Sequence record: PV648359
Source: Escherichia phage LF82-1
Strand: one strand, 5' to 3'
Length of the DNA stretch: 64,000 nt
Shown: positions 46,011-46,190 of the stretch, piece after piece
Numbering within the stretch: the first letter of the stretch is position 1
Layout: each line of letters starts with the position of its first letter
Notes under the pieces: generated by a model
What the model was told of the DNA's origin: nothing
Seen by the model: the letters and a program-made list of their open reading frames with translations, nothing else
Database searches by the model: none
Translations under genes and position numbers: made by a program

Positions 46011-46190
46011 TTAACCCTTTTTAAGTAAGTCGTAAAAACCACCGTTCACATGTTTAGGAGCAGAAACCCGACGAGTAGACAGACGATGACATTCAGGGCA
46101 AACATCGTTTTCTCGTTCAGAAATCCTTTTAATTTTTTCATATTCATGACCACAATCTTCAGATTGGCATTTATAGTCGTATAACGGCAT
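46011..46190 (-). CDS. small zinc-ribbon protein (59 aa, below ORF-track cutoff)
   Basis: Own translation MPLYDYKCQSEDCGHEYEKIKRISERENDVCPECHRLSTRRV... with two CxxC pairs. Confidence 0.5.
   Translation of the reverse strand: MPLYDYKCQSEDCGHEYEKIKRISERENDVCPECHRLSTRRVSAPKHVNGGFYDLLKKG

Follow-up and report, generated by a model that had tools for sequence, protein, structure and literature searches.

A T4-type gene 39.2 orthologue encoding a predicted FmdB-like zinc-ribbon protein in Escherichia phage LF82-1

Gene 39.2 has been part of T4-type annotations for decades (UniProt Q01434) and is found in hundreds of T4-like genomes, and a function has been published for the T4 protein. Georgopoulos's own account describes T4 39.2 as coding for a 58-residue peptide that subtly modulates the GroES/GroEL machine (PMC5153855). 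[quoted passage not shown] An independent T4 paper gives the same summary (PMC4396842), and both accounts cite Ang and Georgopoulos 2012 (Genetics 190:989). In the T4 literature, modulation of GroEL includes the suppression of mutant groEL/groES alleles. In a time-course of T4 infection, the 39.2 transcript was classed as early and the protein was not detected by mass spectrometry (Class_P = NA; PMC9697503 Table S2). No further functional work on gp39.2 was found in the literature searched.

Here we describe the corresponding gene in a 64,000-nucleotide stretch of Escherichia phage LF82-1 (sequence record PV648359), referred to as the window, and compare it with T4 gp39.2, the FmdB family of zinc ribbons and the co-chaperonins GroES and gp31.

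Identity and genomic setting of gene 39.2

The window derives from a Mosigvirus-type T4-like phage. When a 1.4-kb test segment spanning the ORF was compared with other phages, it matched Escherichia phage LF82-2 and its siblings at 100% identity and many Mosigvirus-type phages at about 97-98%. The translated product of 59 amino acids, MPLYDYKCQSEDCGHEYEKIKRISERENDVCPECHRLSTRRVSAPKHVNGGFYDLLKKG, is identical to RB69 ORF006c (NP_861696.1) at 59/59 positions. It also shares 47 of 57 positions (82%; E 2e-37) with the intact 58-residue gp39.2 of T4 strain GT7. The window protein and T4 gp39.2 (NwgI; UniProt Q01434) have the same C-x4-C and C-x2-C cysteines and the same APKHVNGGFYD tail. The window protein is one residue longer, ending in …LLKKG as compared with …LLKG in T4, and nothing of substance otherwise separates the two. 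Judged by its sequence and position, the ORF is the orthologue of T4-type gene 39.2 (NwgI), a gene that is already known. The first-pass annotation had presented it as unannotated, which does not hold: LF82-2 carries this ORF as XUL00585.1, "FmdB-like transcriptional regulator", and the gene is also annotated in RB69 and RB32 and has been functionally studied in T4.

The gene order in the window and in LF82-2, 39 - ORF005c - 39.2 - goF - cef, is that of RB69, where motB.2 comes next. The slot between goF and the topoisomerase gene 39 is shared by RB69, RB32, T4, T2, VR26, Moon, ECD7, and Miller. The RB32 record names the orthologue gene 39.2, and the T4 gene in this slot is 39.2 (T4p008). Bp7 lacks goF and has cef directly before the 39.2 orthologue. 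T4 differs on the other side of the gene, where 39.2 is followed by 39.1, whereas the window and RB69 contain an ORF005c-type gene and no 39.1. The features of the locus are listed in Table 1.

Table 1. Positions of gene 39.2, its parts, its neighbours and gene 31 in the window
Feature	Position	Strand	Remarks
Gene 39.2 orthologue CDS, stop codon included	46011..46190	-	ORF listing; 59 codons; ATG 46190..46188, TAA 46013..46011; predicted zinc-ribbon core in residues 1-42, then a flexible conserved tail
Shine-Dalgarno-like AAGGA	46197..46201	-	6 nt 5' of the 39.2 ATG, within the final goF codons; from coding-strand TTTAAGGAATAATAATG
First predicted zinc knuckle, codons C8..C13	46152..46169	-	Translation; C-Q-S-E-D-C (C-x4-C)
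Second predicted zinc knuckle, codons C31..C34	46089..46100	-	Translation; C-P-E-C
C-terminal tail motif, A44-P-K-H-V-N-G-G-F-Y-D53	46032..46061	-	Conserved; lower-confidence, probably flexible part of the model; candidate partner-binding motif
goF orthologue (upstream)	46193..46603	-	71% identical to T4 GoF, E 3e-74; start per LF82-2 annotation
Homologue of RB69 ORF005c and RB32 ORF005c (downstream)	45583..46008	-	141 aa; 94% and 41% identical, respectively
Terminator-like GC-rich hairpin	45569..45584	both	Minus strand AAGGGCTTCGGCCCTT then TTTGCTTT
Gene 31, GroES-like co-chaperonin	2852..3184	-	110 aa; tblastn 96% identity to T4 gp31, E 7e-67; ORF listing

On the coding strand, the upstream junction reads TTT-AAG-GAA-TAA-TA-ATG, in which 2 nt separate the goF stop codon TAA (46195..46193) from the 39.2 ATG. 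The downstream junction reads GGT-TAA-TT-ATG, in which the stop codon of 39.2 is followed by 2 nt and the ATG of the neighbour (46008..46006). Gene 39.2 therefore lies only 2 nt from the preceding stop and 2 nt from the following start. The first-pass annotation had given exactly this reading frame and 59-residue translation, and its remark that the ORF abuts both neighbours in a 180-nt gap is borne out by the two junctions. The AAGGA arrangement before 39.2 in T4, RB32, and T2 is as in the window. No dedicated promoter is claimed for 39.2, as a promoter scan returned 9 sites compared with 8.9 expected from shuffles. The gene is probably co-transcribed with goF.

The upstream neighbour, noted earlier as an ORF in the position of goF, proves to be a true goF orthologue at the identity to T4 GoF given in Table 1. 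Its start is probably the ATG at 46603, which is supported by public annotation and by alignment with T4 GoF. This ATG shares one base with the stop codon of cef in an ATGA-type junction. The mechanical ORF listing instead starts goF at a TTG at 46621 (46193..46621), overlapping the end of cef.

The downstream neighbour had been called 39.1-like. It is instead a homologue of RB69 ORF005c without similarity to T4 gp39.1, no BLASTP alignment being obtained between the two proteins, and there is no room for 39.1 between this gene and gene 39. Both genes flanking 39.2 match phrog_622 (E 6e-20 for the ORF005c-like protein and E 1e-37 for GoF), a hint that the ORF005c-like gene may be a distant goF-like paralogue. 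A direct BLASTP comparison of the two flanking proteins as paralogues was insignificant, with E 0.035 over 17 residues.

The terminator-like hairpin covers the final two bases of the ORF005c-like gene (end 45583) and enters the 63-nt spacer before the start of gene 39 (45519). Transcription of the early goF-39.2 unit may stop here, or the hairpin may attenuate read-through towards gene 39.

Zinc-ribbon family, predicted fold and conservation

The 39.2 protein matches Pfam Zn_ribbon_8 (PF09723) with 49.3 bits against a gathering cutoff of 34.4 (E 5e-13) and NCBIfam TIGR02605, "FmdB family zinc ribbon protein" (CxxC_CxxC_SSSS), with 48.0 bits against 31.3 (E 9e-13). Both HMM scores lie above the curated cutoffs, in agreement with the FmdB-like zinc ribbon proposed in the first-pass annotation. 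Among PHROG families, the protein matches phrog_1076 (E 1.9e-12). Positions 1-40 of the PF09723 profile align to residues 1-42 of the protein, starting from the initiator Met.

The four cysteines are arranged as C8-x4-C13 and C31-x2-C34, with 17 residues between the two pairs. Of the two CxxC pairs read from the sequence earlier, the second is present as C31-x2-C34, but the first is a C-x4-C pair, with a two-residue insertion relative to CxxC. The C-x4-C form occurs in at least 41 relatives among the 150 listed. In an alignment of 35 sequences (A2), C8 and C34 are invariant and C31 is at least 90% conserved.

The protein shares with the FmdB family (PF09723/TIGR02605) the MPxYxYxC start at the initiator Met, the four metal-ligand positions, the 17-residue distance between knuckles, and a Gly-aromatic tail motif related to the (K)GxG(F/W)YxxDY motif of the family. 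It differs from the family in the first knuckle, which is C-x4-C instead of CxxC, and in its short AP-x4-GG(F/Y)YD tail, which replaces the degenerate Ser/Gly-rich extension. Such an extension, the 'SSSS' of the TIGRFAM name, is typical of the FmdB family, but is not required. The 39.2 protein ends 25 residues past C34 with APKHVNGGFYDLLKKG, and a Ser/Gly-rich C-terminal extension or low-complexity tail is absent from this segment.

When 1.84 billion representatives were scanned exhaustively with HMMER, 252 relatives were found at E <=1e-3. About 20 among the 150 relatives listed are short gp39.2-type proteins with the AP-x4-GG(F/Y)YD tail. The remaining listed relatives are generic FmdB-type ribbons, many of which carry the related (K)GxG(F/W)YxxDY tail. 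Orthologues from eight genera occupy an equivalent place next to the topoisomerase/goF block of early genes and have in common the MPxYxYxC start, the four metal-ligand positions, and the AP-x4-GG(F/Y)YD tail, and their knuckles take the forms C-x4-C, CxxC, CxC, and CxxH. The tail motif is present in all syntenic orthologues compared (9/9, from 8 genera), with KP in place of AP in Miller, and reads APKHVNGGFYD in the window. A protein of the 39.2 group is expected to have 57-65 residues and to combine the ribbon core with the tail, as the 59-residue protein of the window does.

A distant ribbon homologue of 81 residues was found in Serratia phage IME250 (Ackermannviridae; locus coordinates 1201..1446), where it adjoins a T4-like gp33 gene. 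This homologue is only partly annotated and has no GG(F/Y)YD tail. Outside the Straboviridae, the ribbon module is thus found with a different C-terminus.

An AlphaFold2 model built from a 35-sequence alignment predicts four short strands in residues 3-40. The mean pLDDT is 76.6, with values of about 80-82 in the core and 64-69 in residues 41-59. The best match of the model in BFVD is T4 Q01434 (gp39.2), with E 3.7e-5, a target TM of 0.90, and an rmsd of 1.5 Å, and further matches are FmdB-labelled phage proteins (E 1e-3 to 1e-2). A sequence search of the PDB found no relative and returned only non-significant matches to the zinc knuckle of bL31 (E >0.3). A Foldseek search of the PDB with the model likewise gave nothing significant (all E >=0.3). 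These non-significant Foldseek matches are mostly zinc-ribbon modules, such as those of RbpA, the MCM N-terminal domain, aRF1, Sir2, subunit P/Rpb12 of RNA polymerase, and zinc-ribbon proteins of the ribosome. The fold class is a predicted zinc ribbon, as guessed in the first-pass annotation.

The length of the ORF is not beyond chance. Mononucleotide shuffling of the AT-rich window yields about 34 ORFs of >=59 aa over the six frames, and the plus strand of the window, most of it non-coding, contains 42. The gene is also left out of the annotation in some records (T4 GT7), and the T4 reference holds a truncated 45-residue version. These points would fit a chance ORF in a non-coding spacer that is not translated, a reading that is refuted by the selection and conservation data and has practically no probability left. 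Nei-Gojobori comparisons of the window with the RB32, T4 GT7, T2, Bp7, and VR26 orthologues give dN/dS values of 0.01-0.25 in the 39.2 frame, as opposed to 0.4-2.5, mostly >1, in the shifted frames. In the window's own comparisons in which dS is estimable, dN/dS is about 0.05-0.1 in the 39.2 frame, and values as low as about 0.05 are confined to this frame. Third codon positions carry 25-31 of the 37-42 nucleotide differences between the window and RB32, T4, Bp7, and VR26.

The conservation data point the same way. A tblastn search of phage genomes matched the 39.2 frame in 955 phage records, 912 of them with >=80% query coverage. The frame is conserved in Mosigvirus, Tequatrovirus, Dhakavirus, Gaprivervirus, Moonvirus, Krischvirus, Pseudotevenvirus, and Muldoonvirus, and both frame and motifs persist at 35-50% identity across these eight genera. 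The tblastn search and the exhaustive representative search replaced a word-indexed homologue search, whose 8 clusters, several with truncated or frameshifted sequences, gave too little depth for analysis. The HMM scores above curated cutoffs, the ribosome-binding site, the tight spacing to both neighbours, and the reported genetic phenotype of the T4 orthologue also argue against a chance ORF. On this comparative evidence, the ORF is a genuine gene under purifying selection. A frame not conserved in related phages had been named at the outset as what would count against the gene; because of the selection and the tblastn matches, the opposite can be stated.

Possible function of the 39.2 protein

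By analogy with T4, the 39.2 product of the window is likely to be an early zinc-ribbon protein. Its binding to host GroEL would favour a co-chaperonin-accepting state of the chaperonin and so secure GroEL/gp31-dependent folding. The gene would probably be translated from an early polycistronic message together with cef, goF, and the ORF005c-like gene. The 59-residue product is predicted to fold as a zinc ribbon of four strands in which C8, C13, C31, and C34 are the most likely Zn ligands, and the model places a flexible tail with the AP-x4-GG(F/Y)YD motif after the ribbon. By orthology with T4 gp39.2, the protein would act on host GroEL and shift its equilibrium to the open state that binds a co-chaperonin, either host GroES or phage gp31. 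Where the GroEL of the host is poorly suited to the phage, such a shift would aid the folding of GroEL-dependent proteins, above all the major capsid protein.

The gene is said to have been first recovered, in the selection by Ang and Georgopoulos, as the RB69 allele. If so, the characterised protein has exactly the sequence found in the window. The window also encodes gp31, so that the proposed partner system of gp39.2 is present; the T4 annotation of gene 31 reads 'replaces GroES as cochaperone with GroEL'. The mobile loop of gp31 has the sequence ESGLVIGK in the window and ESGLIIGK in T4.

Two other roles can be weighed against modulation of GroEL. The product name 'FmdB-like transcriptional regulator', which is given in LF82-2, RB69, RB32, and RefSeq T4 and is the label in most databases, implies a DNA-binding transcriptional regulator that would act on phage or host promoters at an early stage of infection. 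In line with this name, phrog_1076 is filed under 'transcription regulation', weak Foldseek matches include the RNA-polymerase-binding protein RbpA (E 0.3-1.5), and there is a match to Ogr_Delta. We regard such a role as very unlikely. Every structural match to transcription proteins is non-significant, the Ogr_Delta match is sub-threshold (15.9 bits versus a cutoff of 26.3), and Pfam gives a zinc ribbon only, with no recognised domain for binding DNA or RNA polymerase. The label has been propagated from the family name and, to our knowledge, the original 'regulatory' designation of FmdB came from its gene neighbourhood rather than from a test. Searches of the literature on FmdB and the zinc-ribbon family found no functional study and no report of an effect on transcription for 39.2 or FmdB proteins. 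The product name conflicts with the only experimental evidence for an orthologue, which points to GroEL (PMC5153855 and PMC4396842).

The protein might also be a zinc-ribbon adaptor with a main or additional target other than GroEL, the GroEL phenotype in T4 being a side effect. As interaction modules, zinc ribbons are generic, and matches of the model in the PDB span ribosomal proteins, MCM, Sir2, aRF1, and RbpA. The (K)GxG(F/W)YxxDY tails in many family members from metagenomes and genomes that are not of the gp39.2 type suggest a more general function, and 39.2 always lies among early host-takeover genes (goF, cef, and motB) and not beside gene 31. A different or additional target is nonetheless unlikely. 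According to PMC5153855, the T4 deletion phenotype is specific to certain groEL alleles, and genetics and biochemistry agree. In addition, the identity of the window protein to its counterparts in RB69 (59/59) and T4 (82%) leaves little room for a changed function.

GroEL modulation, the reading we favour, invites comparison with the co-chaperonins. The mobile loop of GroES has the sequence AGGIVLTG. The flexible tail of the 39.2 protein, NGGFYDLL, loosely resembles such mobile loops, the resemblance being short and of low complexity. The proteins also have in common the host machine, GroEL, and the benefit to phage capsid folding. GroES and T4 gp31 are heptameric β-barrel lids of about 100 residues, however, and bear no sequence or fold relationship to the 59-residue zinc ribbon. 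As described in PMC5153855, gp39.2 promotes the binding of a co-chaperonin and does not replace it.

A more speculative proposal, to which we give only a small chance, concerns the tail itself. The AP-x4-GG(F/Y)YD tail might be a linear motif that is presented by the ribbon, docks on GroEL, and biases the ring to open. Docking would perhaps take place in the apical-domain groove used by the mobile loops of GroES and gp31 (GGIVL and SGL(I/V)I, respectively). As many generic FmdB proteins carry the related (K)GxG(F/W)YxxDY tail, the large FmdB family, whose members often bear the name 'regulatory protein', might, under the same proposal, consist of chaperonin modulators and not of transcription factors. 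The conserved tail offers a concrete handle on how a protein of 59 residues may alter the allosteric state of a chaperonin of 800 kDa.

Gene 39.2 in public records

The value of the present analysis lies mainly in curation and little in discovery, since the records of 39.2 include a misleading product name, a truncated T4 RefSeq model, and omitted or mislabelled entries. The T4 RefSeq version of 39.2 (NC_000866.4, locus coordinates 2703..2840) encodes 45 residues, as compared with 58 in the intact form. Compared with T4 GT7 and every other orthologue, this version contains an extra T (GCTTCC versus GCTCC), which shifts the frame into a stop codon. Four nearby substitutions relative to GT7 (KJ477686.1, locus coordinates 1201..1377) lie beside the extra T. 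The difference probably reflects either an error in early sequencing or a lesion of the lab strain. The frameshift removes the APKHVNGGFYD tail from the reference protein (UniProt Q01434), and the truncated 45-residue model may have contributed to the failure to detect the T4 protein by mass spectrometry.

Other records vary in their treatment of the gene. The T4 GT7 record contains an intact 39.2 ORF without a CDS, and the T2 record (AP018813.1, locus coordinates 1201..1377) labels 39.2 'kilA anti-repressor protein'. In Shigella phage vB_SsoM_113 and in Salmonella phage Manna, a frameshift carries the recorded protein into an alternative frame (…NVIVCLLVGLLLLSM).
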